Part shown: positions 6,646 to 62,598 of the stretch, in pieces
Layout of the letters: each line of letters starts with the position of its first letter
Position numbering within the stretch: position 1 is the first letter of the stretch
Source: Minisyncoccota bacterium
Lineage (GTDB): Bacteria; Patescibacteriota; Minisyncoccia; Phycocordibacterales; UBA9973
DNA: 64,000 nt
Reading direction: 5' to 3'
Assembly (NCBI GenBank): GCA_041662525.1
Contig: JBAZSF010000004.1
Location: 1,190 to 65,189 of the forward strand
Made by a program: the position numbers and the translations under genes
The notes under the pieces: generated by a model
What the model was told of the DNA's origin: nothing
Databases searched by the model: none
Seen by the model: the letters and a program-made list of their open reading frames with translations, nothing else

Positions 6646-8019
6646 ATGAAAAAATTAATTTTAGTTCTTACAGGTTTTGTTTTTTTCTTTAGTTTTAATT
6701 TGGCGCAAGCAAGTGTTGTTATAAATGAAATAAAAATATCACCAACTGAAGATAGATTTATTAAGCTTTACAATCAAGATAATGCTGAAGTTGATTTAAC
6801 TAATTGGTATATTCAAAGAAAAACACAAACTGGAACTAGTTTCACTTCTTTAGTCACAAAGACTTATTTTGAAAATAAAAAAATTAATGCAAATGGTTAT
6901 TTTTTAATTTCTCGTGCTCAAATGGAAAATTCTGAAATTGTTGTTGATAATTTGACACTTACTGAATCAAATGTAATCCAACTTAAAAACTCAAGCGGGG
7001 AAGTAGTAGATAAGGTTTGTTGGGGAGATGTAGATAGCTGTGGAAACCCTAATCCAGATTTAGGTCAAAGTATTCTTGTAACAGATCATGCTTCATCCAC
7101 CGTACCGGCAACTGAAACTTCTTCTTCGAATTCAGACACTGTAGTATCCAATGATGATTCTTCTACAGTACAAATAAAACCTAAAGTAATTGAAAATCCA
7201 GTTATGAAAGTAAAAATTTTAGTTAATACTTTAGCTTTTGCCGGGGAGCCATTTGAAATAAAAACTAATGTTTTAGGGTTTTCTAATGAAAATGTAGTTC
7301 TTGGTAGAGCTTCTTGGAATTTTGGCGACGGTAGTTCATTTGAACAAATAAATAATTTTGAAAAGTTTTCTCATATTTATTATTATCCGGGAGAGTATGT
7401 TTTATTTTTGGAATATTATCAAAATAGTTTTTCAAAAATTCCAGAGGCGACGAGCAAGATGGTAATTAAAGTTCTCCCCACGACTGTTTCTATTTCTAAA
7501 GTAGGGGACGCAAAAGATTTTTTTATAGAACTTTCAAACAATGCTAGTTCGGACATCGATATCTCAAATTGGGTTATTAATGCCAATGGAAAAACTTTTA
7601 TTTTACCAAAAAATAGTGTGATTATGTCTAAAAAACAAATGACAATTTCTGGTAAACTAACTGGATTTACTCTTGGTGATCAAAACAACTTAAAGCTTTA
7701 TTCTGGAACAGGAGAATTGGTGTTTGATTATTTGTCATCTAAAGTTCCCATTGTCGCTAGGCAAGACCTAATAACGACAGCAACTAAGCCAAAAATTTCT
7801 ACAGCGATTCCTCCAGCGGTGAAACCGCTGGAAAATTTAGGCGCTACTGTTTTACAAAGTGATGTCGTAAACAGTGAAAGTTCAAACAATTCAAATACCC
7901 CCATTGTTCCTATTGCTTCTTTTGCTTTTATTGGAGCTGGTGCCGGTGCAGTTTATTTTATTCGTCGAAAAAAAGTTATTCCAAAAGAAGGAGAAGACTT
8001 CGAGATCCTAGATGCATAA
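6646..8019 (+). CDS. Secreted protein with two lamin-tail-like (LTD) domains and a C-terminal TM anchor
   Basis: Signal peptide. VVINEIKISPT…DLTNWYI and a second …FIELSNNASSDIDISNWVI LTD-type motif. The C-terminal GAGAGAVYFIRRKK is a hydrophobic anchor with a basic tail. Confidence 0.65.
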   Translation: MKKLILVLTGFVFFFSFNLAQASVVINEIKISPTEDRFIKLYNQDNAEVDLTNWYIQRKTQTGTSFTSLVTKTYFENKKINANGYFLISRAQMENSEIVVDNLTLTESNVIQLKNSSGEVVDKVCWGDVDSCGNPNPDLGQSILVTDHASSTVPATETSSSNSDTVVSNDDSSTVQIKPKVIENPVMKVKILVNTLAFAGEPFEIKTNVLGFSNENVVLGRASWNFGDGSSFEQINNFEKFSHIYYYPGEYVLFLEYYQNSFSKIPEATSKMVIKVLPTTVSISKVGDAKDFFIELSNNASSDIDISNWVINANGKTFILPKNSVIMSKKQMTISGKLTGFTLGDQNNLKLYSGTGELVFDYLSSKVPIVARQDLITTATKPKISTAIPPAVKPLENLGATVLQSDVVNSESSNNSNTPIVPIASFAFIGAGAGAVYFIRRKKVIPKEGEDFEILDA

Positions 8020-9875: not shown

Positions 9876-11708
9876 ATGGATTTAAAACACATTAGAAATT
9901 TTAGTATTATCGCTCACATTGACCATGGTAAAAGTACTTTGGCAGACAGAATGCTTGAAATTACACATACTATAGAAACACGCAAAATGCGGGATCAAGT
10001 ATTGGATTCTATGGACCTGGAGCGTGAAAGAGGAATTACTATCAAAATGCAACCAGTTCGAATGGAGTATGTTTTCGAAGGCGAAAATTATATTTTAAAT
10101 CTTATTGATACCCCTGGGCATATAGATTTTTCTTATGAAGTGTCTAGAGCTCTGAAGGCAGTAGAGGGGTCTATTTTACTTGTTGATTCAACTCAAGGAG
10201 TGCAAGCACAAACGCTTACTACTCTTGCTATGGCTCGCGATAGTGGACTCAAGATTATTCCTGTACTTTCTAAAATTGATTCTCCATTATCTAGGGTTGA
10301 TGAGGTTAAAGAGGAAGTGGTGGAACTTTTGAATTGTGATCCAGATGAAATTTTATTAGTTTCTGGGCGTACAGGAGAAGGAGTACCCGAGCTTTTAAAA
10401 GAAGTCATAAAACGAATTTCAGAACCAAAAGAAACTATTTCGGACGTTGGACGTCCGGATTTCCGAGGTCCAACGTCCGAAATATTACGCGCATTAGTTT
10501 TTGATTTTAAATATTCAAATCATAGAGGGGTGATAGTTTTTGTGCGAGTTTTTGATGGAAAAGTTGCTAAGGGTGATAGTTTAAATTTTGCAGTTTCTGG
10601 TGAGAAATTTACCGCTCTCGAAGTTGGGACTTTTTCTCCAGAAGAAACTCCTCGAGATTTTCTTTATCCCGGAGATACGGGTTATATTGTTACTGGTATA
10701 AAGAAACCCGGCATAGCATCTGTCGGAGATACTATTACGATGTCTAAAAATCCATTGGAAGCTTTTGAGGGCTATATGCAACCATTGCCTGTAGTGTGGG
10801 CGAGCGTATTTCCAGAAGACGCAGATGATTTTGCCGAATTAAAACTTGCCTTAGGAAAATTAAAACTATCTGATTCAGCCTTTTCACATGAAGAAGAATC
10901 CTCTGGGTCTTTAGGTAGAGGATTTAGGTGTGGATTTTTAGGAATGCTTCATTTGGAAATTATTACCGAGAGACTAAAAAGAGAATTTAATTTAGAACTT
11001 GTCGTTACTACTCCATCTATAACTTATGAAGTAACAAACAAACATGGTAAAAAAGAAAAAATTTATTCCCCATATTTTTTTCCAGATGATGGAAATATAG
11101 AAGATGTGCATGAGCCTTGGGTGGATGCAAAAATAATTAGCCCGTCTTTTTACCTAGGAGCTATTATGCAACTTCTTTTTGACCATGAGGCAGAAGTAGG
11201 AGAGACGGATAATTTTGGGGACAATAGATCATCAATTAGTGTCAAAATGCCTTTGCGTGAATTGATGCGAAATTTCTTTGATGAATTAAAAAGTGTTTCT
11301 TCAGGTTATGCTTCCATTTCTTATAAATTAAATGAAAATCGTGAAGCGAGTGTGACTAGATTAGACATTTTGGTGGCGGATGAAATAGTGCCAGCTTTTT
11401 CTAGAGTTGTTTCTAAAAAGAGAGCAGAAGTTGAAGCAGAAAATGCAGTTTTAAAATTAGAAGGTTTGCTTCCTAGACAGATGTTTACTTTGAAAATTCA
11501 AGGTCGCGCTTTTGGGCGCATTATTTCTTCTCGTACTCTTTCAGGTATGAAAAAAGATGTGACTCAACATATGTATGGAGGAGATATTACTCGAAAAATG
11601 AAACTTCGAGAGAAACAAAAGAAAGGCAAAAAGAAAATGAAAGAGCGCGGACGCGTTAATATTCCACAAGATGTATTCCTAAAAATGATGCGATCAGGGG
11701 AAAAGTAG
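9876..11708 (+). CDS. lepA: Elongation factor 4 (LepA)
   Basis: NFSIIAHIDHGKSTLADR G1 motif, DTPGHIDF, and the LepA-specific C-terminal domain. Contains an in-frame GC-rich palindromic insert at 10436-10484. Confidence 0.95.
   Translation: MDLKHIRNFSIIAHIDHGKSTLADRMLEITHTIETRKMRDQVLDSMDLERERGITIKMQPVRMEYVFEGENYILNLIDTPGHIDFSYEVSRALKAVEGSILLVDSTQGVQAQTLTTLAMARDSGLKIIPVLSKIDSPLSRVDEVKEEVVELLNCDPDEILLVSGRTGEGVPELLKEVIKRISEPKETISDVGRPDFRGPTSEILRALVFDFKYSNHRGVIVFVRVFDGKVAKGDSLNFAVSGEKFTALEVGTFSPEETPRDFLYPGDTGYIVTGIKKPGIASVGDTITMSKNPLEAFEGYMQPLPVVWASVFPEDADDFAELKLALGKLKLSDSAFSHEEESSGSLGRGFRCGFLGMLHLEIITERLKREFNLELVVTTPSITYEVTNKHGKKEKIYSPYFFPDDGNIEDVHEPWVDAKIISPSFYLGAIMQLLFDHEAEVGETDNFGDNRSSISVKMPLRELMRNFFDELKSVSSGYASISYKLNENREASVTRLDILVADEIVPAFSRVVSKKRAEVEAENAVLKLEGLLPRQMFTLKIQGRAFGRIISSRTLSGMKKDVTQHMYGGDITRKMKLREKQKKGKKKMKERGRVNIPQDVFLKMMRSGEK
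10436..10484. repeat. GC-rich perfect palindrome embedded in-frame in lepA
   Basis: tatttcggacgttggac…gtccaacgtccgaaata: 17-bp arms with a 15-nt spacer. GC-rich against an AT-rich background. Encodes …SDVGRPDFRGPTSE…. Confidence 0.7.
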
Positions 11709-11712
11709 AGAT

Positions 11713-11860
11713 TAAAAAAATCTAAAATAAACTTTTTCCGGTACGGATTTTTCGAAGCTTGAAAAATCTCTTCGAGCCTGAGGCCCTCAGAGCCGAAGGC
11801 CTGAAATTCTCGGCTCGACAGCCTCGAAACCCCTCCAAAAGCTTATTTTAGATTTTTTTA
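11713..11860 (+). mobile_element. MITE-like element, copy 1, with ~25-bp AT-rich terminal inverted repeats and a GC-rich structured core
   Basis: Left TIR taaaaaaatctaaaataaacttttt and right TIR caaaagcttattttagattttttta are near-perfect reverse complements. The core (ggtacggatttttcgaagcttgaaaaatct … ttctcggctcgacagcctcgaaacccct) recurs at 48961-49078. Inserted immediately after the lepA stop. Confidence 0.65.
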
Positions 11861-12030
11861 TCTAAAAATCGGTGAGTAAAGCAATATCATACTGATAATA
11901 ATCAATATGCTAACGATAGCCCAAGCAATTTGTATCTTCTTTTGATGTTTTTTGTTGAAAAGCATATACTAAGTATATCATATTATGACCCGTTCGACAA
12001 ACTCAGGGTCATGGTGAATAAAATTGAACC

Positions 12031-13438: not shown

Positions 13439-14788
13439 ATGACCAAGCATTGGATCAAAAATTTTGATCAGTTGGCTACGACTGAAAATAGGAAAAATGC
13501 GTTAAAAATAGTAGAAGCTGGTTTTGATGCTATAAATACAGAGGAAGTAATAAAAAACAAGATAAAACTTGAAGATAATATTTTATTTATTAATAACGAA
13601 AGTTTCGATTTAAATAAATTCAAAAACATAAAAGTTGTTGGTTTTGGTAAAGATTCCATGGATGGCGCCTTAGCAATTGAGAAAATTTTAGGTTCTAAGA
13701 TAAAGGAAGGTGCTGTCATCGGAATTACTAAAGTAGATTGCACACACATTGAAACTTTTACAGGTACACATCCTAGGCCAAGCGAGGTAAATGTTACTGC
13801 AGGAAAAAAGATATATGAAATGATTAAAGATTCTAATACTGATGATTTGATTATTGTTCTTGTTTCTGGTGGAGGATCATCTCTTTTGTGTTACCCTGAG
13901 AGTGAAAATACAGAAGGTTCAAAACTCTATGATGCATTTTTGGGATCTGGTAAAACAATCATTGAGATGAATACTATTAGAAAACATTTGTCTCTCTTGA
14001 AAGGGGGTGGTTTAGCAAAGTTAGCTTACCCAGCTACCGTTATCGGTCTTATTTTTTCTGATGTTCCCGGAAATGATTTTGAGGATGTTGCCTCTGGGGC
14101 AACTTATAAGGATGAAACCACTATAGATGATGCGAAAAAAATTATTACCGAGAATAATTTAGGAGAATTTGATTTGATTGAAACTCCCAAAGAAGATAAA
14201 TATTTTGAAAAAGTTCATAATTTTGTTTTAGTTTCAAACAAAACTGCAGTGGAAGCAATGGCGAAAAAAGCGGAAGAATTTAATTTAGAAACTAATATTG
14301 TTTCAACTGAATTATATGATGAAATAAAAGAAGCGCTTAAAAAAATATTTTCCAGCAACAAAACCAATGAAGGATTTTCTCAGGTCCTCGGTTCTCCGGG
14401 TCCCTATCCCGGCCAGACCATTCAAAAACCCTTCATTGGTTTTGTTAAACTTGCAGCTGGTGAGCCAAGTATTGAAGTCACCAAAGAAGGAAGCAAGGGG
14501 GGTAGGAATTTACATATGGGATTAGAAGCTATAAAAATGAAATTAGTGGATGATGATTCTGTTTTTATAGCTTTTGCTTCAGATGGTATGGACAATAGCG
14601 ATGTGGCTGGAGCGATAATAGATAAAGATACTTTAGATAAAGTCGAAAAACTTGGTTTGGATGTTGATGATTATATAGAAAGATTTGATTCTTATGATTT
14701 TTTTCAAAAAACTGGGGATGTGATTATTACTGGACCTACTGGCGCGAATGTTTCTGATTTGATGATTCTTTTAACTAAGAAAAATTAA
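13439..14788 (+). CDS. Glycerate 2-kinase (MOFRL/DUF4147 family)
   Basis: …LVSGGGSSLL… and …LKGGGLAKLA… motifs characteristic of MOFRL-family glycerate kinases. Confidence 0.72.
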   Translation: MTKHWIKNFDQLATTENRKNALKIVEAGFDAINTEEVIKNKIKLEDNILFINNESFDLNKFKNIKVVGFGKDSMDGALAIEKILGSKIKEGAVIGITKVDCTHIETFTGTHPRPSEVNVTAGKKIYEMIKDSNTDDLIIVLVSGGGSSLLCYPESENTEGSKLYDAFLGSGKTIIEMNTIRKHLSLLKGGGLAKLAYPATVIGLIFSDVPGNDFEDVASGATYKDETTIDDAKKIITENNLGEFDLIETPKEDKYFEKVHNFVLVSNKTAVEAMAKKAEEFNLETNIVSTELYDEIKEALKKIFSSNKTNEGFSQVLGSPGPYPGQTIQKPFIGFVKLAAGEPSIEVTKEGSKGGRNLHMGLEAIKMKLVDDDSVFIAFASDGMDNSDVAGAIIDKDTLDKVEKLGLDVDDYIERFDSYDFFQKTGDVIITGPTGANVSDLMILLTKKN

Positions 14789-20816: not shown

Positions 20817-21515
20817 TTAATAATTTTCACTCATTCTTCTTACTTTTTCAAAAAGTAACATAATTATAATTGTAACGACCCACAAAAATGCTAATACTTT
20901 CAAGAAATCACTTCCATCATTTCTTATTATAAAAAAATTAAAGGCGCTATGCAAGGCAATAGCAATTAAAAATCCAAAAAAAAGGAAACTATTTCTTTCC
21001 CATTTTTTCATAAAAAAAGAAATTCCTATCGAGATACCTATTATTCCACTTGAGATCGTGTGAAGGAGATTGGCCCCCAGAAATCTTAGATTACCAGTAC
21101 TTAGGCTCAAGGTAGTTCCTATTGAAGAAGGAAAAATTTTAAGCAAGAATAACATATTTTCAAGAGCAGCAAATCCTAGAGCTGCAGTAATCATATATAT
21201 CGGCCAATCTATTGGTTTGTCGGCATTTCTTGTTTTACACAAGATCACCAATACCGCAAGATATTTTAATATTTCTTCTGCGCTAGCCCATAATACAAGC
21301 TTACCTTCATAAGAGCTTATTTGATCTTGTATAAATTTTTGAATTGGCAAGACAAATATAACCATTATCATGCCCATTATAAATACTATAGCGACTAATC
21401 CTTTTGGTTCAGGGTGTTCTTCGTCTTCTTTCAACCAAAACCATAGCCATAAAAGAGAAGGGATAATTCCACCCAAAAATGCTACGATTAAAGTTTTTGG
21501 ATCAGTTGTTATCAT
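20817..21515 (-). CDS. PrsW-family intramembrane protease-like protein
   Basis: Multi-TM protein with EExxK (AEEILKY), FAxxEN (GFAALENM) and a downstream HxxxN/S motif typical of PrsW/YpdC. The start is taken at an internal Met to limit overlap with valS; the longest ORF runs to 21557. Confidence 0.55.
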   Translation of the reverse strand: MITTDPKTLIVAFLGGIIPSLLWLWFWLKEDEEHPEPKGLVAIVFIMGMIMVIFVLPIQKFIQDQISSYEGKLVLWASAEEILKYLAVLVILCKTRNADKPIDWPIYMITAALGFAALENMLFLLKIFPSSIGTTLSLSTGNLRFLGANLLHTISSGIIGISIGISFFMKKWERNSFLFFGFLIAIALHSAFNFFIIRNDGSDFLKVLAFLWVVTIIIMLLFEKVRRMSENY

Positions 21516-23715
21516 TATGGCCGTAGGTCCCGAGCGTAGCGAGGGGCCATTGTTCAATCATTAATAGATTTTTGTTTTGTTCTTGGTCTTTCGTGGGCAT
21601 CATCGACCAAATTTCTTCTGTAACGAATGGCATAAAAGGATGTAAGGTTTTAAGTAAGGTAATTAAATGTGTGTAAAGAAGAACTTTAGCTGAATCTGCA
21701 TTTTTATTTTCTAAAATCTTTTTCTTTGAACGTTCGATGATAATATCCGCGAAGGTGTGCCAGAAATAATGATAAAGTTTTTCGGCGACAAGAGAAAATT
21801 TAAATTCACTCATTTCTTTTGATACCTCAGCTATCAAACTTTCTAATTCTTTTTTACTTAGTGCATCTTCTTCATCGAGTTTTGATGTATTGATAATATT
21901 AAAATCTTTTGTTTGCTCTAAGACAAATCTGGAAGCGTTCCAAACTTTGTTAGTAAATTTTCCATAGCCACGAATATCGTTTTCATTTAATTTTAAATCA
22001 TTTCCTGGAGTATTGCCTATGACCATTGCCATCCGTAATGCATCATTGCCATATTTTTCTATTATATCTAATGGGTCGATAGCTTTTTCACCGAGTGATT
22101 TAGACATTTTTTTACCATCGGCTGTACGGACCATGCCATGTAGGTAAACTTTTTCAAACGGTATTTCTCCTAAGAGATACTGAGACATTAGAATCATACG
22201 GGCAATCCAGAAAAAAAGAATATCGTGTCCTGTTTCTAGAATAGTGGTCGGATGATAATCTTCAAGATCCTTTGTTTTTTCAGGCCAGCCCAAAGTAGAA
22301 AAGGTCCAAAGTCCTGAGGAAAACCAAGTATCTAACGTATCTTCATCTTGAATCCATCCTTCTTCTTTTGGTGCTTCAATACCACAATAAATTTCTTTAT
22401 CTTTATACCATACGGGTATTCTGTGCCCATACCAGATTTGTCTACTAATACACCAATCACGCAAGTTTTCAATCCAGTTGAAATACACTTTTTCGAAATG
22501 AGATGGCATTATTTTTATTTTTCCATTCCTTACTGGCTCTAGCATTAATTCTTTGAGGGATTTATTTTCTCTGTTTGGAATTTTTTTATTTACATCCACG
22601 AACCATTGGAGCATTATTTGAGGTTCGATCATTCCTCCAGTTCTCTCTGCGGTAGCCACTCTGTTTACATAATTTTCTTCAAGTTTTACTAGTAATCCTT
22701 TTTCTTTTAATTTTTCTACAATTTTTTCTCTAGCTTCAGTAATTTTCATACCTGCAAAATCTCCTGCAATAGGAAGGAGTTTGCCGTATTTGTCTATGAT
22801 TTGTTCTTTGTCTAATTTGTATTTTTCGGCAATGGCAAAGTCTTCGTGTGAATGCCACGGGGTTATAGTCATGACTCCAGTACCGAATTCCATATCGATT
22901 ATTTCATCTTTTATAACAGTAGCTTCTATTGGTCCATTTATCCACTCGACAGTCAGCTTGTCGCCATGTTTCCACTTTATATATCTTTTATCGTCTGGAT
23001 GCATCACAACGTATTTATCACCAAATTTTGTTTCTGGGCGAGCAGTACCTATTTCAAAAGGTCCATATTTAAAAGTATAAAACTTACCTTTTCTTTCTTC
23101 ATAGACTAATTCATCATCTGAAATGACTGTTTGCCCTTTTGGATCCCAGTTTACTATTCTGTGTCCACGATAAATAAGCCCATCGTCATACATTGTTTTA
23201 AAAGCAGTTTTTACGGCAATATTACGAGTTTCATCTAGGGTAAAAGCTTCGCGAGACCAGTCAAGGGAAGCACCGAGCTTTTTTGCTTGGTTCACTATCG
23301 TGTCGTGTGATTCTTTGGCAAATTTTTCTACTTGTTTTAAAAATTCTTCTCGGCCTAAAATATTTTTTCTAATACCTTCTTTTTCTAGCATTTTTTCTAC
23401 CTTGGATTGGGTGGCTATCGCAGCATGATCAGTACCAGGGAGCCAGAGAGTACGCTTGCCTTGCATACGAGCGTGCCGCACCATGATATCTTGGATTACG
23501 AGCATAAGTGCATGTCCAGTGTGTAAATTGCCAGTGACGTTTGGTGGGGGAAGTACTATGGAGAATTTTTCTGCATCAATTTTTGTTATTCCTTTTTCTA
23601 TACATACATCTGGATTAAAAAAACCAGATTCTTCCCAAAGCTTGTAAATTTTTTCTTCGGTATTTTTAGGGTCGTAGGGTTTGAGCAACTTTTCGTTCAT
23701 GCCTAAATATATCAC
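21502..23715 (-). CDS. valS: Valyl-tRNA synthetase (compact form)
   Basis: PPPNVTGNLHTGHA (HIGH region), KMSKSLGE (KMSKS) and the editing-domain layout of ValRS. 737 aa, so it lacks the long C-terminal coiled coil. Confidence 0.88.
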   Translation of the reverse strand: MIYLGMNEKLLKPYDPKNTEEKIYKLWEESGFFNPDVCIEKGITKIDAEKFSIVLPPPNVTGNLHTGHALMLVIQDIMVRHARMQGKRTLWLPGTDHAAIATQSKVEKMLEKEGIRKNILGREEFLKQVEKFAKESHDTIVNQAKKLGASLDWSREAFTLDETRNIAVKTAFKTMYDDGLIYRGHRIVNWDPKGQTVISDDELVYEERKGKFYTFKYGPFEIGTARPETKFGDKYVVMHPDDKRYIKWKHGDKLTVEWINGPIEATVIKDEIIDMEFGTGVMTITPWHSHEDFAIAEKYKLDKEQIIDKYGKLLPIAGDFAGMKITEAREKIVEKLKEKGLLVKLEENYVNRVATAERTGGMIEPQIMLQWFVDVNKKIPNRENKSLKELMLEPVRNGKIKIMPSHFEKVYFNWIENLRDWCISRQIWYGHRIPVWYKDKEIYCGIEAPKEEGWIQDEDTLDTWFSSGLWTFSTLGWPEKTKDLEDYHPTTILETGHDILFFWIARMILMSQYLLGEIPFEKVYLHGMVRTADGKKMSKSLGEKAIDPLDIIEKYGNDALRMAMVIGNTPGNDLKLNENDIRGYGKFTNKVWNASRFVLEQTKDFNIINTSKLDEEDALSKKELESLIAEVSKEMSEFKFSLVAEKLYHYFWHTFADIIIERSKKKILENKNADSAKVLLYTHLITLLKTLHPFMPFVTEEIWSMMPTKDQEQNKNLLMIEQWPLATLGTYGHNDNN

Positions 23716-23737: not shown

Positions 23738-24943
23738 TTAGAGCTTTAGATTACCAGTTGCTTTTACGTCATCTAATTTAGGAACTCTCTTTTTATTTTT
23801 TATATAATTTAAATATCCAGCGATACCGATCATTATAGAATTATCTCCCATAAGTTCTTTTGTGGGAAATAAGATTTTTATTTTTTTTCCGCCAGAGGCG
23901 GATCCGCCTAGGGCGGAGATTTCATTCTGTAAATGTTTATTAGCCACGACTCCTCCAGCAACGATAAGAGTTTTTATATTATATTTTTCTACAGCTTTTT
24001 TTGTTTTGTAAGTTAAACATTCGATAGCGGCGTTTTCAAATTCTAAAGCAATTTGTGCTTTTGTTTTTTGGTTGATTTTTTTGATACCACCTAAATCTCT
24101 TATCAAATACAAAACTGCTGTTTTGAGTCCAGAAAAAGAAAAATTAAAATCTTTAGTATATATCATTGGACGGGGGAGAGCTAAAGAAAAACTAATCTTT
24201 TTGGGGTTGCGTTCACAGGAGAAGCGAGAAACTCGTGCGGACTCAGCGCACATAATTTTCTGTTGAAAATTTGCTATGCTCGGCTCGCCAGCCTGCGCAA
24301 TGCTTCGCTCGCACGAGTTTCTCGCTTCTCCTGCCAATTTTGAAATCTGTGGTCCACCAGGATAAGGTAGATCAAGCATTCTGGCCACTTTATCGAAAGC
24401 TTCACCGACGGCATCGTCGAGTGTTTCCCCGATAATTTCATAATTCATAAATTTGTTAGAAAGTACTAATTGGGTGTGCCCGCCTGATACGAGCAACATC
24501 AGTATAGGTGTTTTTAATTTCTCTATTTTAAAAGTTCCCCTGCCTTTTCCAAAAACAGAAAGGATGTGTCCTTCCATATGGTTGACTGGTACTAAGGGTA
24601 CTTTCCATTTTTGCGAGAGCTCTTTGGCAAAAACGATCCCAGTCCAAAGAGACATTTCAAGTCCTGGACCATGAGTCACCATTATTGCGTCTATTGGTTT
24701 TTTATTTTTACTTAACTTAACTTTTTTCAAGCAGGCTTCTAATAAAATAGGCAGATTTTTTTCATGTTCCAGTTTTGCCAGTTTTGGAAAAACTCCGCCA
24801 TAGGGGATGTGAACATTGATTTGAGAATTTGAGCTGTTGGCTAAAACTTTAAAAGAAGCATTTGTAATGCCTCCTTTAGCTTCCATTATACTTATTGCTG
24901 TATCGTCGCAGGAAGTTTCGATGCTTAAAATTCTTATTGTCAT
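23738..24943 (-). CDS. tsaD: tRNA N6-adenosine threonylcarbamoyltransferase TsaD (Kae1/Gcp family)
   Basis: ILSIETSCDDTAISI N-terminus, …HMEGHIL… metal-binding motif, …FSFSGLKTAV…. Carries a ~40-aa in-frame insertion encoded by a GC-rich palindrome at 24216-24333. Confidence 0.88.
   Translation of the reverse strand: MTIRILSIETSCDDTAISIMEAKGGITNASFKVLANSSNSQINVHIPYGGVFPKLAKLEHEKNLPILLEACLKKVKLSKNKKPIDAIMVTHGPGLEMSLWTGIVFAKELSQKWKVPLVPVNHMEGHILSVFGKGRGTFKIEKLKTPILMLLVSGGHTQLVLSNKFMNYEIIGETLDDAVGEAFDKVARMLDLPYPGGPQISKLAGEARNSCERSIAQAGEPSIANFQQKIMCAESARVSRFSCERNPKKISFSLALPRPMIYTKDFNFSFSGLKTAVLYLIRDLGGIKKINQKTKAQIALEFENAAIECLTYKTKKAVEKYNIKTLIVAGGVVANKHLQNEISALGGSASGGKKIKILFPTKELMGDNSIMIGIAGYLNYIKNKKRVPKLDDVKATGNLKL
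24216..24333. repeat. GC-rich palindromic element inserted in-frame in tsaD
   Basis: Perfect 24-bp inverted repeats caggagaagcgagaaactcgtgcg / cgcacgagtttctcgcttctcctg flank a 70-bp core. The core contains ctcggctcgccagcct, a 15/16 match to the MITE core ctcggctcgacagcct. Confidence 0.7.
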
Positions 24944-24950
24944 ATTTATG

Positions 24951-25022
24951 TGCGCGGTGAGGGGATTGAACCCCCGGCCTACCCCACGTCAAGGGGTCGC
25001 TCTACCACTGAGCTAACCGCGC
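24951..25022 (-). tRNA. tRNA-Val (anticodon GAC)
   Basis: The reverse complement folds as GCGCGGT…ACCGCGC with anticodon stem ACCCC/GGGGT, loop TTGACGT, T-arm CCGGGGGTTCAATCCCC. Confidence 0.8.
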
Positions 25023-48960: not shown

Positions 48961-49078
48961 CCAGATTTTTAAAATATCAATTTTTCTTCGGTACAGATTT
49001 TTTGAAGCTTAAAAAATCTTGAAGTTCTCGGCTCGACAGCCTCGAAACCCCTGCAAAAAATTATATTTTTAAAATCTA
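48961..49078 (+). mobile_element. MITE-like element, copy 2
   Basis: TIRs cagatttttaaaatatcaattttt / aaaaaattatatttttaaaatctag. Same core as copy 1 but lacking its 37-bp GC-rich segment. A compensatory C-G to T-A change in the agattttt[c/t]gaagctt[g/a]aaaaatct hairpin. Confidence 0.65.
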
Positions 49079-49082
49079 GATT

Positions 49083-52146: not shown

Positions 52147-52157
52147 AATTTGTCTAA

Positions 52158-53948
52158 TTAACAACCTACTCCCACTTTCCAAAATTCTATAGCTTGAAGA
52201 ATTAAGGAATTTAAAACATTGCCGATCTTCCATTGACCTATATAAGATAAAATTTCCGCATTACCAATAACACCATCGAGATTTGTGTCAGCTGTAGTTT
52301 GACAAGCAGGGCCGACCGCTGTCACGGTAACTATTGAAGCATTACTAGTTACTGCGTCTGAAGTCGCAGTGATGTTTGTCGTACCAGCAGCTACTGCTGT
52401 TACGAGACCCGTAGCACTCACTGTAGCTACTGCTGTATCAGAAGAATTCCAAGTCATCGCAGGTTGAGTCGCTAGAGCTACACTATTTTGATCTAAAGCA
52501 GAAGCTGATAGTTGAGAAGTACCTGCGACTACTATACTCGCTGTTGTTGGTGTGACTGAAATTGAAGTGAGGACGGGATTTGGGGTAATAGCCACCACAT
52601 TGACAGTCCTGGTAACCGACGTAGCTGGATTACCAGCGGCGTCAGAAACGTTGTAGGTCAAAATGTAACTCCCCAAAGTGGCTGTATCTACTGTACCGGT
52701 GACAATTATGTTGGCAGTGATATTGCCATCCACATCATCAGAAGCAGTGGCTCCTGGATCAGTGAAGACACTTGCTTGAACCACATCCACTGGGTTAGCT
52801 CCAAGTAATATAATGACTGGGAGAGTGGTGTCAGCAGGTGGTGAAACAGCTGTAATAATTATTGTGACTGGAGATGAAACTGGCGCTGATACCATGTCAT
52901 CAACAATTACATTAAAATTATAAGTTCCTGCTATGCTTGGGGTCCATGAAAATGTTCCCATGGCATTAATTGATGATCCAATAGGCGCATTCGCGTCAAG
53001 CGTATACATTAGCATTCCCTGATTTGGATTAGTGGCAATTACATCAAATGTTACTGCTTGCCCAACTGTTCCATTTTGTTGAGGTATTGGGGTTATGACT
53101 GGAGATGCTGCAAAGCTAGCGCTGATCGTATGAGCAATAGTAACGTTGGTGAAGGTGTAAGTCGCAACTGCGCCAACTGAAACTCCGTCCACCAAAACAT
53201 CCGCTACTACGAAATTAGTATTCGGAGTTATGGTGTAAGCTCTATTTGCTCCATGATTAACCGACGTCACTCCAAGAGGAGAAATTGTTCCGTTGGCGCC
53301 CGTCGAAGATGTAATGTTGTAAGTATTAATCGCGAAACTTGCATTGATCGTGTGAGTAGTTGTTACATTATTAAATGTATAATTTAAAACTGCTCCGACT
53401 GAAGATCCGTCAACTAAAACATTAGCTATATGATAACCGGTGTTTGGTGTAATTGTATAACTTTGACTTGATCCGGAGTTAACAGGGGTTGTTCCAGCTG
53501 GAGTAACTGTCCCTCCCGCGGTACTTGCAACTGAAACTATATTATGAGTTGTTGCTGTAGATGATATTACCAAATTTACGTTTGTTAACGGTTCAACAAC
53601 AAATGATCTGGTTACGTTTGTACTAAATGCTCCAAATGTCGCGTTTAATTGAATTTGATCTCCAGCAACGGTACAGATATTTAGGTTGCTTGTGTCGATC
53701 TGGTAAAATCCTCCCAAAGAGGTTACGACTGATAGTGCGGGGGATCCATTTGTAACGTCAGTAAGCGTGACAGTGGCATTATCAGTCGCTATACCATTAA
53801 ATGTAACTGTCCCATAAAATGTATTTAGCGGACATCCTTGAGCCGCAATAGCCGGGGTAGGCGAGATGAAAGCAAATTGCATTATCGCGGAAGCTACTAT
53901 CAAACTTACTATTTTTTTTATTGTATTTTTTGAGATATTTATGTTCAT
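52158..53948 (-). CDS. Secreted surface protein with Big_2 Ig-like domains and a Cys-flanked dockerin-like C-terminal module
   Basis: Signal peptide. Big_2-type segment (VLTSISVTPTTASIVVAGTSQLSA…). C-terminal CQTTADTNLDGVIGNAEILSYIGQWKIGNVLNSLILQAIEFWKVGVGC, almost identical to the C-terminus of the 60637-62598 protein. Confidence 0.6.
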   Translation of the reverse strand: MNINISKNTIKKIVSLIVASAIMQFAFISPTPAIAAQGCPLNTFYGTVTFNGIATDNATVTLTDVTNGSPALSVVTSLGGFYQIDTSNLNICTVAGDQIQLNATFGAFSTNVTRSFVVEPLTNVNLVISSTATTHNIVSVASTAGGTVTPAGTTPVNSGSSQSYTITPNTGYHIANVLVDGSSVGAVLNYTFNNVTTTHTINASFAINTYNITSSTGANGTISPLGVTSVNHGANRAYTITPNTNFVVADVLVDGVSVGAVATYTFTNVTIAHTISASFAASPVITPIPQQNGTVGQAVTFDVIATNPNQGMLMYTLDANAPIGSSINAMGTFSWTPSIAGTYNFNVIVDDMVSAPVSSPVTIIITAVSPPADTTLPVIILLGANPVDVVQASVFTDPGATASDDVDGNITANIIVTGTVDTATLGSYILTYNVSDAAGNPATSVTRTVNVVAITPNPVLTSISVTPTTASIVVAGTSQLSASALDQNSVALATQPAMTWNSSDTAVATVSATGLVTAVAAGTTNITATSDAVTSNASIVTVTAVGPACQTTADTNLDGVIGNAEILSYIGQWKIGNVLNSLILQAIEFWKVGVGC

Positions 53949-58179: not shown

Positions 58180-60591
58180 TTATCTATTAAGTGCCGCGCG
58201 AGTGAGAGGTCCTACGATCCCATCGCCAATTAATCCATTCACTATTTGGAATTTAATGAGAGCCCCACCGGTTATTCTTCCAAATTTTCCATCAACCACT
58301 AGTGGACCATATTTGGTGTTGTTTAAGAACTTCTGAAGTTCCATAACTTCGTTTCCTATTGAGCCATTCCTAAGGAAAAGAGTAAAGAAGAATCTTTCAT
58401 CTCCGAGCACTTGACTTGTTCCAGTATTTCCAACACAAGATTGACCAGTAGTTACACTAAATCCAGTTGTTCTATTGCCACATCCAGGAATTGGTCCAGT
58501 ATTCCCAACACAAGATTGACCAGTAGTTACACTAAATCCAGTTGTTCTATCGCCACATCCAGGAATTGGTCCTCCTGTTCCAGTATTTCCAACACAAGAT
58601 TGACCAGTAGTTACACTAAATCCAGTTGCCCTATTGTCACATCCTGCAATTGGTCCTGTTGAAGCACCTAATACTTGGCCAATAAGGGGTCTTATAAAAC
58701 TACCGCCACCGCCTCCTCCACTAGATTGAGGCACTGCTGTCACCGTCACCAAAGTCGTTCCAGTCACTGCTCCACTAGTTGCGGTAACTGTGGTAGTTCC
58801 TACTGCGACTGCAGTAAACATTCCAGTGGTAGCATTAATCGTTCCGACTGCTAGATTAGAACTTGTCCAAGTGACAGTCGCTACAAATGGTGCTCCGTTT
58901 TGATCCAAAGTGGTAGCGGTCATTTGCTGAGTGTTTCCTACTACTACGGATGGGTTAGCTGGGTTAACAGTGATAGAAGTTAAAACTGGAACAGCCGTCA
59001 CCGTCACCAAAGTCGTTCCAGTCACTGCTCCACTAGTTGCGGTAACTGTGGTAGTTCCTACTGCGACTGCAGTAAACATTCCAGTGGTAGCATTAATCGT
59101 TCCGACTGCTGGATTGGAGCTTGTCCAAGAAACAGTGGCTGCGATTGGTGCTCCGTTTTGATCTAAAGTAGTTGCTGTCATTTGCTGAGTATTCCCAACC
59201 GTGACAGAAGGAGTAGTGGGGGTGACGTTGATGGTGGTGAGGACGGGGGTTGGGGCTGCCGTTACCGTCACTGACGTACCACCTAAAATTGGTACTTCTG
59301 TTACACCATTAGAATCAAAAGCGAATGTGCCAGAAAATGTACTTACTCCCGAAGCTGTTCCTGGGATAGCAAGTGTGTATTGTCTTGTACCTGAAGCAGC
59401 TCCAGTTAATTCAAGCCATCGAATGTGTCCACCAGCGATGGTTCCTGTACCAGAGAGGTCTGTGGCGACCCAACCAGCAGGGAATATTTCATCGATGAGA
59501 ACAGTTCCGTTTGCATCGGCTGGATCAACAGCAGAAGTCAAAGTTACGGTGATGACTGTTCCGGCAGTTGGAGTAGCATTACTGAAACTGCGGGTGACGG
59601 TGGAATTTACCACCACTGGTGCTGTCACTGTCACCAAAGTAGTCCCTGTCACTGCGCCACTTGTAGCGGTGATAGTCGTGGTTCCTACTGCGACTGCAGT
59701 AAACATTCCAGTGGTAGCATTAATCGTTCCGACTGCTGGATTGGAGCTTGTCCAAGAAACAGTGGCTGCGATTGGTGCTCCGTTTTGATCTAAAGTAGTT
59801 GCGGTCATTTGCTGAGTATTCCCAACCGTGACAGAAGGAGTAGCGGGGGTGACGTTGATGGTGGTGAGGACGGGGGTTGCTGTCACTGTAATTACTGAAA
59901 TATTACTGGTCACTGCCCCTGAGGTCGCTGTAATATTTGTTGTACCAACAGAAACCGCAGTCACTAAACCAGTCGCACTAACTGTGGCTACTGCGGGATT
60001 GGATGAGTTCCAAGTCATCACAGGTTGAGGGGACATTGCTACCGCATTTTGATCTAAAGCAGAAGCACTTAATTGAGAAGTGCCTGCGACTACCAAACTA
60101 GCTGTTGTTGGAGTTAAGTTTATTGAAGTAAGTACTGGCGTAACAATTACTGCTGTCACTGTCACCGATGTATCACCAAGAATTGGTACTTCCGTTGCAC
60201 CATTAGAGTTAAAAGCGAATGTGCCAGAAAATGTACTTACTCCCGAAGCTGTTCCTGGGATAGCAAGTGTGTATTGTCTTGTACCTGAAGCAGCTCCAGT
60301 TAATTCAAGCCATCGAATGTGTCCACCAGCGATGGTTCCTGTACCAGAGAGGTCTGTGGCGACCCAACCAGCAGGGAATATTTCATCGATGAGAACAGTT
60401 CCGTTTGCATCGGCTGGATCAACAGCAGAAGTCAAAGTTACGGTGATGACTGTTCCGGCAGTTGGAGTAGCATTACTGAAACTGCGGGTGACGGTGGAGG
60501 CGTCAGCGGCCTGAGCACCAATTCCCACAAAGAAAGCAATTACTGCCACTACCATTCCTATTTTTTTAATTATTGATTTTAAGTATTTCAT
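58180..60591 (-). CDS. Surface scaffold-like protein: duplicated novel ~110-aa domain, four Big_2 domains, three Cys-repeats and a C-terminal peptidoglycan-binding (PG_binding_1-like) domain
   Basis: Signal peptide. Novel domain (STVTRSFSNATPTAG…GTFAF) present twice. Repeated Big_2 domains. Gly-rich linker. 3x GC(D/G)xR(A/T)TGFSVTTGQSCVGNTG. C-terminal …KFLNN…VDGKFGRITGGALIKFQ…GLIGDGIVGPLT…. Confidence 0.65.
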   Translation of the reverse strand: MKYLKSIIKKIGMVVAVIAFFVGIGAQAADASTVTRSFSNATPTAGTVITVTLTSAVDPADANGTVLIDEIFPAGWVATDLSGTGTIAGGHIRWLELTGAASGTRQYTLAIPGTASGVSTFSGTFAFNSNGATEVPILGDTSVTVTAVIVTPVLTSINLTPTTASLVVAGTSQLSASALDQNAVAMSPQPVMTWNSSNPAVATVSATGLVTAVSVGTTNITATSGAVTSNISVITVTATPVLTTINVTPATPSVTVGNTQQMTATTLDQNGAPIAATVSWTSSNPAVGTINATTGMFTAVAVGTTTITATSGAVTGTTLVTVTAPVVVNSTVTRSFSNATPTAGTVITVTLTSAVDPADANGTVLIDEIFPAGWVATDLSGTGTIAGGHIRWLELTGAASGTRQYTLAIPGTASGVSTFSGTFAFDSNGVTEVPILGGTSVTVTAAPTPVLTTINVTPTTPSVTVGNTQQMTATTLDQNGAPIAATVSWTSSNPAVGTINATTGMFTAVAVGTTTVTATSGAVTGTTLVTVTAVPVLTSITVNPANPSVVVGNTQQMTATTLDQNGAPFVATVTWTSSNLAVGTINATTGMFTAVAVGTTTVTATSGAVTGTTLVTVTAVPQSSGGGGGGSFIRPLIGQVLGASTGPIAGCDNRATGFSVTTGQSCVGNTGTGGPIPGCGDRTTGFSVTTGQSCVGNTGPIPGCGNRTTGFSVTTGQSCVGNTGTSQVLGDERFFFTLFLRNGSIGNEVMELQKFLNNTKYGPLVVDGKFGRITGGALIKFQIVNGLIGDGIVGPLTRAALNR

Positions 60592-60636
60592 ATTTTTTAT
60601 TTTATTATTTTTAATTTTGATAATTTTTCGACACTT

Positions 60637-62598
60637 TTAACACCCTACTCCCACTTTCCAAAATCCTATGGCTTGAAGAATTAAGGAATTTAAAACATTA
60701 CCAAGTTTCCATTGACCTATGTAAGATAAAATTTCTACGTTGCCAATAATTCCATCGAGATTAGTGTCAGCTGCAGTTTGGCAAACTGCAGCAGTGGTAA
60801 CAGTAATTGCTGAAGTTCCCTCGACCGTAATTACTCCATCAATTGCAGTAGCTGTAATCGTGACAGTGCCAGGAGCGATCGCAGTAACTAATCCTGAACC
60901 ATCAACAGTGGCAATAGCATTATCACCTGAAGACCAATTTATTGTTGGTTGAGGAACTAAAGCATTTCCAAATTGATCCAAGGCTGATGCTGAAAGTTGT
61001 TGAGTTAATCCTGTATTTATCGAAGCAGTGGTTGGAGTGACATTTAACCCAGATAAAATAGTGACAGCGAGAGAATGATCGATCGTTGTGGAATTACTTC
61101 CATCAGTAGCTGTAATAGGGATATTAAATAATCCTGCTCTGTCCAAATTTGGTAGAATAAGCGACCAGGTACCGTCTGTTTCAGATCCAGCATTTCTAAT
61201 CATGTTTACTATGTTTGGAGTAGGAATTATTTGCCCACGAATTTCACCGTTTGAAAATAGAGTGGTGTGTATATTTACATAAGTTCTCCCAGCTAAAATT
61301 TCTGCTTCTATTTCTTCAGGATAATTCCAGGTTCCATTTGCTGGAAGTGTAGTTCCTAGATCAAAAGTAATTGCTGAATTTTGACCCAAAGCTCCGTTTG
61401 GAGGAACAACAGATCCATGAATATGCATTCCGGTGATTGATCCACCTTGCAAACCCGAAGCACTAATATTATAAGTTAATGTATTTGCATTTGTATCAAT
61501 AGTAAATGTTCCGGATCCTGTTGCTGTACTAGTGGTTGCAGGAACTTCTTGTGTTTTATTAAGAGTAGCAGTAAAGGTGTTGCTTAGTGCCCCCAAATCA
61601 GCGGTAACTCCAATCACCCTCAGATCATCAGTAACGTTTGCGCTTAAAACAACATTATTAGAACCAAGTGGTACAGAAGCAGGTGCAGTAGAAACTATGG
61701 TTGGAGCGATGGTGTCAACAACCGCGATACGTCCAGTAACAGTAAATAAATTTTCTTGAATGAAACCGGCACCAGCAAAACTTGTTGCGGGGCCCTCAAT
61801 TCTTATAAAGTTTTGTCCAACAGGGCTACCAGTAATAGCGTGCGGTATATTTGGATTACCAATATATCTTTTGGTTGGATTCTGAGCGTTGACCAAGAGA
61901 GGATCCGACAAAGCTGGATTTAGATTGAACGTGTCCCAAGTCAAGAACGGTCCGATACCACTGTTAAGAGTAAGAATAGGATCACAAATGGCTATACCTG
62001 GAACACCAGCACAACCGATATCAGACGAATCATTGATTTCTGGAGCTCCCGGATCTATTACGTCCACGACATAAGTTTTTGTACCGAAAGGATGTCTGAT
62101 GGTGTATGTTCCGGGCACATCTACATCGTATCTGTGTCTGATGCGACCAAAAATAGATTCACTACCCTCAACCGTTCCACCGAGATAAGCAACCTCTAAA
62201 GCTAAAATGGTCTTACTGACAGAGCCGGCAGGATTAACTGGGATAGCGTCAGCCGTCCAGTAGAATCCTTCGCCCGAAAATCCGAGTTCTGCGGAAAAAT
62301 CATTTCCACCCTGAATCGGCCCTGAGATACCGAAACCGTCGATGGCTTCCATGATCTCAATCGCAAGACCGTTCTGGTCCATAAACCATGCAGGTAAACT
62401 CTTACCAATACCTGCAGTTACAATAGGACCAGCCATTCCACCAGGCACGAATGCCGCTTGGGAGACGTTCGCGCTAAACAATAAAGCAAACACAAAAACA
62501 CCAGTCAAAAGAGATGCGCTATATTTATATTTAACCTTTTTATTCATTCTCGCTATTAATAAAACGTATAATAATTTTTGTATGATTGTTTTTTTCAT
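60637..62598 (-). CDS. Secreted surface protein with CHRD-like and Big_2 domains and the shared dockerin-like C-terminal module
   Basis: Signal peptide. CHRD-like segment (…LTYNISASGLQGGSITGMHIHG…). Big_2. C-terminal CQTAADTNLDGIIGNVEILSYIGQWKLGNVLNSLILQAIGFWKVGVGC. Confidence 0.6.
   Translation of the reverse strand: MKKTIIQKLLYVLLIARMNKKVKYKYSASLLTGVFVFALLFSANVSQAAFVPGGMAGPIVTAGIGKSLPAWFMDQNGLAIEIMEAIDGFGISGPIQGGNDFSAELGFSGEGFYWTADAIPVNPAGSVSKTILALEVAYLGGTVEGSESIFGRIRHRYDVDVPGTYTIRHPFGTKTYVVDVIDPGAPEINDSSDIGCAGVPGIAICDPILTLNSGIGPFLTWDTFNLNPALSDPLLVNAQNPTKRYIGNPNIPHAITGSPVGQNFIRIEGPATSFAGAGFIQENLFTVTGRIAVVDTIAPTIVSTAPASVPLGSNNVVLSANVTDDLRVIGVTADLGALSNTFTATLNKTQEVPATTSTATGSGTFTIDTNANTLTYNISASGLQGGSITGMHIHGSVVPPNGALGQNSAITFDLGTTLPANGTWNYPEEIEAEILAGRTYVNIHTTLFSNGEIRGQIIPTPNIVNMIRNAGSETDGTWSLILPNLDRAGLFNIPITATDGSNSTTIDHSLAVTILSGLNVTPTTASINTGLTQQLSASALDQFGNALVPQPTINWSSGDNAIATVDGSGLVTAIAPGTVTITATAIDGVITVEGTSAITVTTAAVCQTAADTNLDGIIGNVEILSYIGQWKLGNVLNSLILQAIGFWKVGVGC

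Follow-up and report, generated by a model that had tools for sequence, protein, structure and literature searches.

Palindromic repeats that sit in-frame within protein-coding genes have been described as the Rickettsia palindromic elements RPE-1 to RPE-10 (Ogata et al. 2000, 2002, cited in PMC6649704; review PMC10969869). The element analysed here lies within tsaD in a 64,000-nucleotide stretch of DNA from Minisyncoccota bacterium (contig JBAZSF010000004.1 of assembly GCA_041662525.1, positions 1,190–65,189; hereafter the window), and is probably a selfish RPE-like repeat translated as a disordered loop. Like RPEs, it is a palindromic repeat in the range of ~100–150 bp within a small AT-rich genome, has intergenic copies as well as in-frame copies in unrelated housekeeping genes that are not destroyed, places a passenger peptide in a tolerated region of the protein, and has no known transposase. 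The original prediction, made from the letters of the window, had already drawn this analogy, which holds at the level of the family, with in-frame members in at least 10 housekeeping genes. Because the host belongs to the Patescibacteria, a different phylum, membership of an RPE family is not claimed; the likeness is one of kind rather than of sequence homology. The family in this candidate phyla radiation (CPR) lineage also departs from RPEs in keeping an asymmetric three-way-junction core with covarying hairpins and mostly locus-specific outer arms, and in that different sub-families occupy the same host site repeatedly, in tandem as well as in either orientation. Its arms are near-perfect (92% paired), whereas RPEs are reported to lose repeat identity over time (PMC6649704). 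The behaviour of the family is known from RPEs, and what sets it apart is its architecture, the re-use of hot spots, the preservation of the arms and the phylum in which it occurs.

Long near-perfect inverted repeats within genes, with both arms translated and with dynamic gain and loss, are likewise found in the mitochondria of Nematomorpha, where arm identity seems to be actively maintained and template switching or conversion has been proposed (PMC6649704). Those palindromes have no common core and do not form a dispersed family, whereas the CPR family is defined by its core and also occupies intergenic DNA. Bacterial MITEs (miniature transposable elements with inverted repeats) such as Correia/NEMIS, ERIC/IRU, BOX/RUP/SPRITE and the Coxiella QMITEs (PMC10969869, PMC5896051) are also small, non-coding, hairpin-forming and multi-copy, and resemble the CPR family in their co-transcription with genes, occasional in-frame fusions, nested or adjacent insertions and, for SPRITE, terminator-like positions. 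Unlike them, the CPR family lacks target-site duplications, conserved termini in most sub-families, and any related transposase or parent insertion sequence that we could find, and the label MITE that the original prediction had given to the intergenic repeats does not hold in the strict sense. In 62 of 69 copies the palindrome ends lack any direct repeat of at least 2 nt, and the 2–4 nt repeats in the other seven are consistent with chance in AT-rich flanks; nor was an insertion sequence with matching ends found near the copies. The REP/BIME and REPIN systems (RAYT, Y1/HUH) share with the CPR family their occurrence in both orientations, their gene-end positions, the supply of any enzyme in trans and probably a strand-specific folded hairpin as the basis of recognition. 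Repetitive extragenic palindromes (REPs) are simple hairpins of 20–40 nt with a conserved 5' GTAG, extragenic by definition and associated with RAYT genes. Assignment to REP/REPIN is rejected, as the CPR element measures ~100 nt, folds around a three-way junction, is genic in about a quarter of its copies and has no recurrent RAYT-like neighbour; no RAYT gene was present in ~1.1 Mb of flanking sequence, the flanks rather than whole genomes being searched. A literature search, which was not exhaustive, returned no description of elements of this kind from CPR or Patescibacteria, which is absence of evidence only.

The element within tsaD and its insertion site

The tsaD element, which we label type A, has inverted arms of 24 nt each that are 100% complementary and enclose a 70-nt core (Table 1). 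The arm sequence occurs once in the 64 kb and is matched in 0 of 100 shuffles, and the sense RNA has a folding energy of -72.8 kcal/mol against -40.9 +/- 4.0 for shuffled sequence (z = -7.95). Its G+C content is 53%, compared with 35% for the remaining tsaD and 36% for the window. The open reading frame (ORF) stays open straight across the element. Its length of 118 nt is not divisible by 3; the gene-proximal 5' arm shares native-looking codons (LAGEAR) with its host. The core includes a 16-mer, CTCGGCTCGCCAGCCT at 24279–24294, that matches CTCGGCTCGACAGCCT at 11809 and 49027 in 15 of 16 positions, with a chance expectation of 0.02. A covariance model, R1, was built from six copies, namely tsaD types B, C, D, E and F and the intergenic window copy at 48962–49080, with no type A sequence among them. 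R1 scores the tsaD element (24217–24332, minus strand) at 43.7 bits with E ~2e-8, or 48.1 bits with filters off. As the model detects a type of copy absent from its training, the link through the 16-mer reflects real homology, as had been proposed.

The 401-residue ORF that carries the element encodes a TsaD/Kae1/Qri7-type ASKHA protein, on which Pfam, sequence matches in the PDB and fold agree. Hallmarks of such proteins are the ASKHA fold, domain PF00814, a metal-binding HxxxH and a C-terminal GDN aspartate. PF00814 is annotated on all homologues of the ORF, the NHMEGH and GDN columns are invariant in the TsaD alignment, and phmmer aligns the ORF with solved TsaD chains in the PDB at E 3e-63. 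The AlphaFold model of the window TsaD (pLDDT 87.7) has a Foldseek TM-score of 0.88 to Aquifex TsaD (8ifx_A), and its superpositions on the Aquifex and E. coli proteins score 0.84–0.88. Within it, residues ~211–250 form a loop with pLDDT 40–66 between flanks that both exceed 90. Residues 209–254 stand in place of ~3 residues in the solved TsaD 8iey_A, and E. coli 4ydu aligns over the same ranges. In the model the TsaD fold and catalytic motifs are unharmed by the insert, whose ~40 added residues are predicted at low confidence. The original description of a GC-rich, in-frame palindrome with perfect 24-bp repeats around a 70-bp core, adding about 40 residues where E. coli TsaD has none, is borne out by these results. 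Its reading of SKLAGEARNS as a native TsaD block is right in part: the LAGEAR codons look native, but the block is partly the arm of the element itself.

The window allele of tsaD is composite, with the stump of an older element after the type A copy. This 32-nt remnant lies 3' of the element in the gene, is identical at 26 of 32 positions to the right arm of a type C element (L085), and is the only match of at least 24/32 to that arm on either strand of the window. The closest relative of the window allele, L087, carries type A and a comparable remnant, and L081 carries no remnant. The same element occupies the same tsaD site in the independent assemblies GCA_028718635.1, GCA_043812335.1 and GCA_018816985.1.

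The insertion site is a hot spot. The distance from YPGGP to the start of FSFSGLKT is 32–36 residues in ~75 genomes of many phyla among the matches listed, which are mostly distant relatives, and the E. coli and Aquifex structures likewise carry no insert in this loop. In about 100 of the 120 closest TsaD homologues (62–100% identity), 25–75 extra residues occur exactly here, between GGPxISKLAE and LPRPM. The insert peptides form discrete types that are, at the DNA level, the same element in other frames and orientations. Type F of L090 is type B of L005 inverted, type E and the intergenic window copies are in inverted orientation, and two elements stand in tandem in L083, P0025 and P0101. On a TsaD tree from which the insert was left out the types are scattered, with differing sisters (A/E, B/G, B/F, A/none, C/none), and three genomes of one metagenome with tsaD 83–87% identical carry type B, type G or just a 25-nt palindrome. 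The window insert is thus one allele at a site with turnover of sub-families, orientations and copy numbers. As to the suggestion that the insertion might be lineage-specific, it is so with respect to distant bacteria but does not represent a single lineage-specific event, given that most close relatives carry some member; it is neither universal nor, in view of the three assemblies that share it, a chimera. The 'empty' tsaD allele of L212 (~10640–10670) keeps a 25-nt near-perfect palindrome, TTCCCGTACACCAGGTGTCCGGGAA, and L091 tsaD retains a 10-bp hairpin (GAAGCTAGA...TCTGGCTTC).

Comparison of orthologous type A copies (window, L087, L081 and L083) reveals that their arms differ by paired changes that alter the encoded residues. 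Examples are GCGAGA/TCTCGC against GCCAGA/TCTGGC and ACTCGTGCG/CGCACGAGT against ACTTGTGCG/CGCACAAGT; ATTTCGCGC/GCGCAAAAT is another. As these changes keep the stem and alter the amino acids, it is the nucleic acid that is under constraint or homogenisation, and the peptide would be a passenger. Two of the three frames of sense-oriented type A contain stop codons, and each sense-oriented genic type A copy reads the sole open frame, yielding a peptide of the form xIAQAxEPS. Such exclusive use of the open frame is the pattern expected from selection on a translated insert.

A dispersed family of structured repeats

The tsaD element is one copy of a dispersed non-coding hairpin repeat family of ~85–120 nt in Nomurabacteria-like Patescibacteria (Parcubacteria/Paceibacteria). 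All tsaD-site inserts from the relatives fetched fold alike, with a closing stem P1 of 20–30 bp, an asymmetric three-way junction and two hairpins, P2 and P3; this plan of a long P1 enclosing a conserved junction is common to all copies of the family. P2 is a short G+C hairpin (GGCU-GNCG-AGCC) inside CGCAGGCUGNCGAGCCGAG, and P3 is a hairpin of 6–8 bp with an AGCA-type loop and a stem that covaries freely in relatives (CUCCGCG/CGCGGAG, AUUCGCC/GGCGAAU and others). In a 68-row alignment, 92.3% of cells hold standard pairs compared with 58.1% in shuffles, and two-sided changes occur at 39 of 39 pairs. The covariation score of 0.728 compares with 0.178 for shuffles, none of 500 reaching the observed value, and with at most 0.146 for slid partners. 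P2 is 98.8% paired in alignment A4, a conservation that is partly imposed by the 19-mer pattern used for searching. Independent covariation comes from P3, and from both-sided changes in P2 within sub-families that lie outside the selection by this pattern and were reached by other routes (types C, D, L022, L049 and L087).

In most sub-families the inner ~80 nt are conserved, and the outer 10–26 bp of the stem are locus-specific yet form a near-perfect palindrome. Over the outer 16 nt, pairwise identity averages 0.35, and 80% identity is attained by just 0.7% of pairs. The exception is a sub-family with conserved termini, AAYTYGTYGCAGG...CCRAGAAAGAGTT, found at unrelated loci (Table 1). Just outside these termini a locus-specific inverted repeat begins again, extending up to 14 bp in L171 (TAGACCTCTTTCAA|...|TTGAAAGAGGTCTA), which suggests either insertion at the centre of a palindrome or outward growth of the stem. 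Arm mismatches are also asymmetric. On the strand that reads CGCAGGCUGACGAGCCGAG, G.U(T) exceeds A.C by 73:28 over 30-nt arms, by 49:14 in intergenic copies, by 10:3 where genic copies are antisense to the mRNA, and by 46:28 over the outermost 16 nt (p = 0.047). This excess points to one specific single strand as the one that folds, regardless of which way the host is transcribed.

A scan of metagenomes for the core 19-mer CGMRGGCTGNCGAGCCGAG returned at least 120 loci. R1 confirms 65 among the 120 matches listed, with two copies at some loci. Roughly one copy in four is located within a long ORF, and all of these are in-frame and stop-free even though the DNA pattern is blind to frame. These ~22 in-frame copies fall in at least 10 gene families; further in-frame members, for which the original prediction had advised a scan of the genome, were found among the metagenome loci in recG, uvrD, an ileS-like gene, tgt, dus, ksgA, fmt and an M1 peptidase gene, in addition to tsaD. 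The tsaD of L187 bears two members at two sites (6835–6940 and 7344–7456), one in the usual loop and one immediately ahead of the DAIAVTxGPG motif. Relative to the mRNA, genic copies run in either orientation, at ~60:40. The remaining copies fill short intergenic spacers, mostly 0–50 bp past a stop codon and many between convergent genes; where the neighbouring genes are co-directional, the element is antisense to them in 17 cases and sense in eight. At the intergenic copies checked, the flanking ORFs are unrelated genes and never two halves of one gene. Carriage by phage is rejected, as none of the three matches to the 19-mer in viral contigs was confirmed by R1.

Four family-like copies were found in the window by scanning with R1, the type G copy being matched by its arms only. 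Both intergenic window copies are long hairpins with the common core. The type G palindrome represents a second family, hosted by a DUF4147/MOFRL glycerate-kinase-like gene (13439–14788, plus strand); its core is TCAGGTCCTCGG...GTCCCTATCCCGGCCAGACC and its resemblance to the main family, as modelled by R1, is confined to the arms. The same type G insertion is present in the glycerate-kinase-like gene of L089 (20376–20465), and the type G core also occurs at the tsaD hot spot in L089 (~10589–10668) and L214. The spacer 3' of ftsZ holds a main-family copy in L087 (7769–7883) and L213 (4050–4158) and nothing in L212 (5058–5099), and in L089 (~7476–7560) it holds a third, unrelated strong palindrome (-40 kcal/mol). 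These differing occupants indicate that intergenic sites too are re-used by different hairpin elements.

Table 1. Coordinates of the tsaD element, its substructures and related copies. Positions without a locus label refer to the window; L numbers are our labels for other loci.
Feature	Location	Strand	Details
Host gene tsaD	23738..24943	minus	401-aa ORF, intact; NHMEGH and GDN motifs kept
Complete type A palindromic element	24216..24333	minus	118 bp; gene-sense product AGEARNSCERSIAQAGEPSIANFQQKIMCAESARVSRFSC
Closing stem P1, gene-sense 5' arm	24310..24333	minus	CAGGAGAAGCGAGAAACTCGTGCG; overlaps codons (L)AGEARNSC
Closing stem P1, gene-sense 3' arm	24216..24239	minus	CGCACGAGTTTCTCGCTTCTCCTG; encodes SARVSRFSC
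Hairpin P2	24282..24293	minus	sense GGCU-GGCG-AGCC; part of CGCAGGCUGNCGAGCCGAG, the motif with the highest conservation; inside the 16-mer
Hairpin P3	24254..24271	minus	sense AAUUUUC-AACA-GAAAAUU; from folding and family alignment
Remnant right arm of second (type C/B-like) element	24177..24208	minus	AACCCCAAAAAGATTAGTTTTTCTTTAGCTCT; encodes NPKKISFSLAL before native PRPM
Intergenic family member	11713..11860	minus	R1 66.4 bits; convergent genes; starts 5 bp past stop of upstream plus-strand gene
Intergenic family member	48962..49078	minus	between divergent genes; part of R1 training set
Type G palindrome, second family	14357..14446	minus	in-frame in glycerate-kinase-like gene; encodes NEGFSQVLGSPGPYPGQTIQKPFIGF
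Conserved-termini sub-family	L112 1916-2029; L102 399-513; L109 9515-9628; L190 810-924; L209 6-120		
Conserved-termini sub-family, further copies	L208 1083-1197; L135 4726-4840; L171 804-918; L202 2672-2786		
In-frame copies, RecG	L143, L158, L140		one common site
In-frame copies, UvrD	L142, L130, L121		one common site, both orientations
In-frame copies, class I aminoacyl-tRNA synthetase (IleRS-like)	L145, L189		one common site
In-frame copies, other hosts			TGT, Dus, KsgA (RrnaAD), Fmt (Formyl_trans_N), Peptidase_M1
In-frame copies, tsaD	L137, L100, L119, L181, L187		

Origin of the element and alternative explanations

As a selfish repeat, the element would be spread by an enzyme acting in trans that recognises a folded single strand. 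It may land preferentially, or survive best, at existing hairpins and quasi-palindromes such as terminator-like gene-end sequences and earlier copies, while purine-rich or pyrimidine-rich codon runs, for example EERK...FSL in tsaD, might provide other landing sites. Selection would leave only in-frame, stop-free copies in permissive loops. The complementarity of the arms may be kept or extended by conversion or by intrastrand template switching, the latter having been suggested before for palindromes in coding sequence (PMC6649704), rather than by selection on the protein.

Several observations weigh against this explanation. No transposase lies between or next to the copies examined, and mobility is something that we infer. 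Paired copies in L136, L169, L116, L135 and L112 flank ordinary genes with no transposase, and among 911 clustered ORFs from within 2.5 kb of copies only host genes and syntenic neighbours recur. The scatter of types at the tsaD site could stem from homologous recombination between relatives instead of repeated insertion. The filled L213 and empty L212 ftsZ spacers provide one clear intergenic comparison, in which the empty site has no obvious pre-existing palindrome, and landing in hairpins consequently stays conjectural. That the tsaD copy would be transcribed and translated with its gene as a disordered loop we infer from open frames alone. Finally, the strong conservation of junction and loops, the covariation in P2 and P3 and the G.U excess go beyond what a purely selfish palindrome would require and would fit a functional RNA too.

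A more specific mechanism may be put forward tentatively, although we hold it to be doubtful. The family could be an undescribed, transposase-free mobile element whose junction core is read as folded single-stranded DNA by a host enzyme, such as a Xer-like tyrosine recombinase or an HUH enzyme, and which integrates at the centres of hairpins or quasi-palindromes, its stem then growing by template switching. If true, this would explain together the locus-specific perfect outer arms beyond conserved termini and the missing target-site duplications, as well as why different sub-families re-use the same sites and how essential CPR proteins would be steadily provided with new surface loops. More generally, the junction core and locus-specific arms, together with the missing target-site duplications and transposase, point to an undescribed mechanism of mobilisation or maintenance.

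The main rival to a selfish repeat is a functional structured RNA or signal, such as a signal for transcript ends or processing, a site for RNase III or for protein binding, or a small RNA, with the genic copies as by-products or regulators. We judge this unlikely. It would account for the strong covariation of P2 and P3, the conserved junction and loop nucleotides and the strand asymmetry of G.U over A.C in intergenic copies, and it agrees with the position of most intergenic copies within 50 bp past a stop, many of them between convergent genes. Genic copies, however, lie in both orientations and the G.U excess persists in those antisense to the mRNA, so that it tracks the element and not the transcript. 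In co-directional contexts antisense copies outnumber sense copies, some copies lie in divergent promoter regions, as in the window at 48962–49078, and occupancy varies between close relatives, which fits a dispensable element. An intrinsic (Rho-independent) terminator is a short G+C-rich hairpin with a loop of 3–8 nt and a T run directly after it. A consensus scan called neither intergenic window copy, and the tsaD copy has no T run after the stem on the sense strand; on the negative scan of the window copies, a terminator role is rejected. Many outer arms elsewhere do open with an A run and close with a T run, and some copies may therefore sit in or mimic terminators.

Searches of Rfam 15 at gathering thresholds across the whole window returned tRNAs only, and at E up to 10 the regions 24100–24450 and 11650–11920 gave only sub-threshold miRNA-hairpin and snoRNA noise. 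Described RNA families, including self-cleaving ribozymes and introns, are rejected for want of an Rfam match. When the core was compared by eye with hammerhead, twister, pistol and HDV-like ribozymes and with group II domain V, none was accepted; CUGACGA recalls the CUGANGA of the hammerhead, which was rejected because no GAAA or stem III follows.

It is very improbable that the element is excised, in an intron-like and stem-guided manner, or bypassed in translation to give a TsaD protein without the extra residues. CPR genomes are known for intervening sequences in their rRNA genes, the perfect 24-bp stem sets both junctions side by side, and the peptide differs wholly between types and hence is clearly not a conserved part of the protein. 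Splicing or bypass would nevertheless lift the constraint that sense type A always occupies its sole open frame, and all genic copies recovered with the frame-blind pattern keep the host frame open and stop-free. Two thirds of genic copies would have to split genes, yet no flanking ORF pair that was checked represents gene halves, and no ribozyme or intron family is matched in Rfam. An old, vertically inherited TsaD loop with a coincidental likeness to the intergenic repeats is scarcely credible. Most close homologues do carry extra residues at the same position, but a model built without type A detects the element at E ~2e-8, the same DNA is found at the site both inverted and in different frames, sister sequences carry unlike types or no insert, and identical cores are also present between genes and within nine other gene families. 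Perfect long inverted repeats are a possible product of multiple-displacement amplification or mis-assembly, for example as a chimeric snap-back hairpin, but an artefact has a negligible probability in view of the continuous ORF, the compensatory differences among three independent NCBI assemblies and the presence of the family in dozens of metagenomes.

Implications and further observations

In-frame palindromes in essential genes, so far seen as a peculiarity of Rickettsia, occur at scale in Patescibacteria, a very different lineage of free-living or epibiotic hosts with small genomes. They explain part of the length variation and some of the odd low-complexity loops of CPR housekeeping proteins, with a bearing on how these proteins are annotated, aligned, placed in phylogenies and modelled in structure. 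As their occupancy varies among close relatives, the hot spots in tsaD, recG, uvrD and ileS could be used to mark strains. The reading of one DNA in several frames and both orientations at a single site of a protein also represents a natural experiment on the tolerance of random peptides.

Upstream of tsaD, 7 bp from its start and on the same strand, lies a tRNA-Val(GAC) gene (24950–25022, minus), and valS (21502–23715) comes after tsaD with a spacer of 22 bp. The gene order tsaD-valS-prsW-hsp20 is kept in every close relative fetched. Among the other hosts of in-frame copies, the UvrD ORF of L142 (3588–6755, minus) also contains an intein (Pfam Intein_splicing, residues 304–632), and the IleRS-like ORF of L145 (6571–10302, minus) has a His_Phos_1 (histidine phosphatase) hit at residues 575–734, between the two parts of the synthetase catalytic domain. 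Enolase is called as two genes (84 and 314 residues) in L085 (18183–19433) and as one gene of 416 residues in the near-identical L086, which could be a frameshift or an assembly difference. Elsewhere in the window, positions 58400–60800 and 52150–52580 contain large direct repeats, with 84-nt tandem units and copies of 148–300 nt that are 77–96% identical; these probably belong to a repetitive surface-protein gene.

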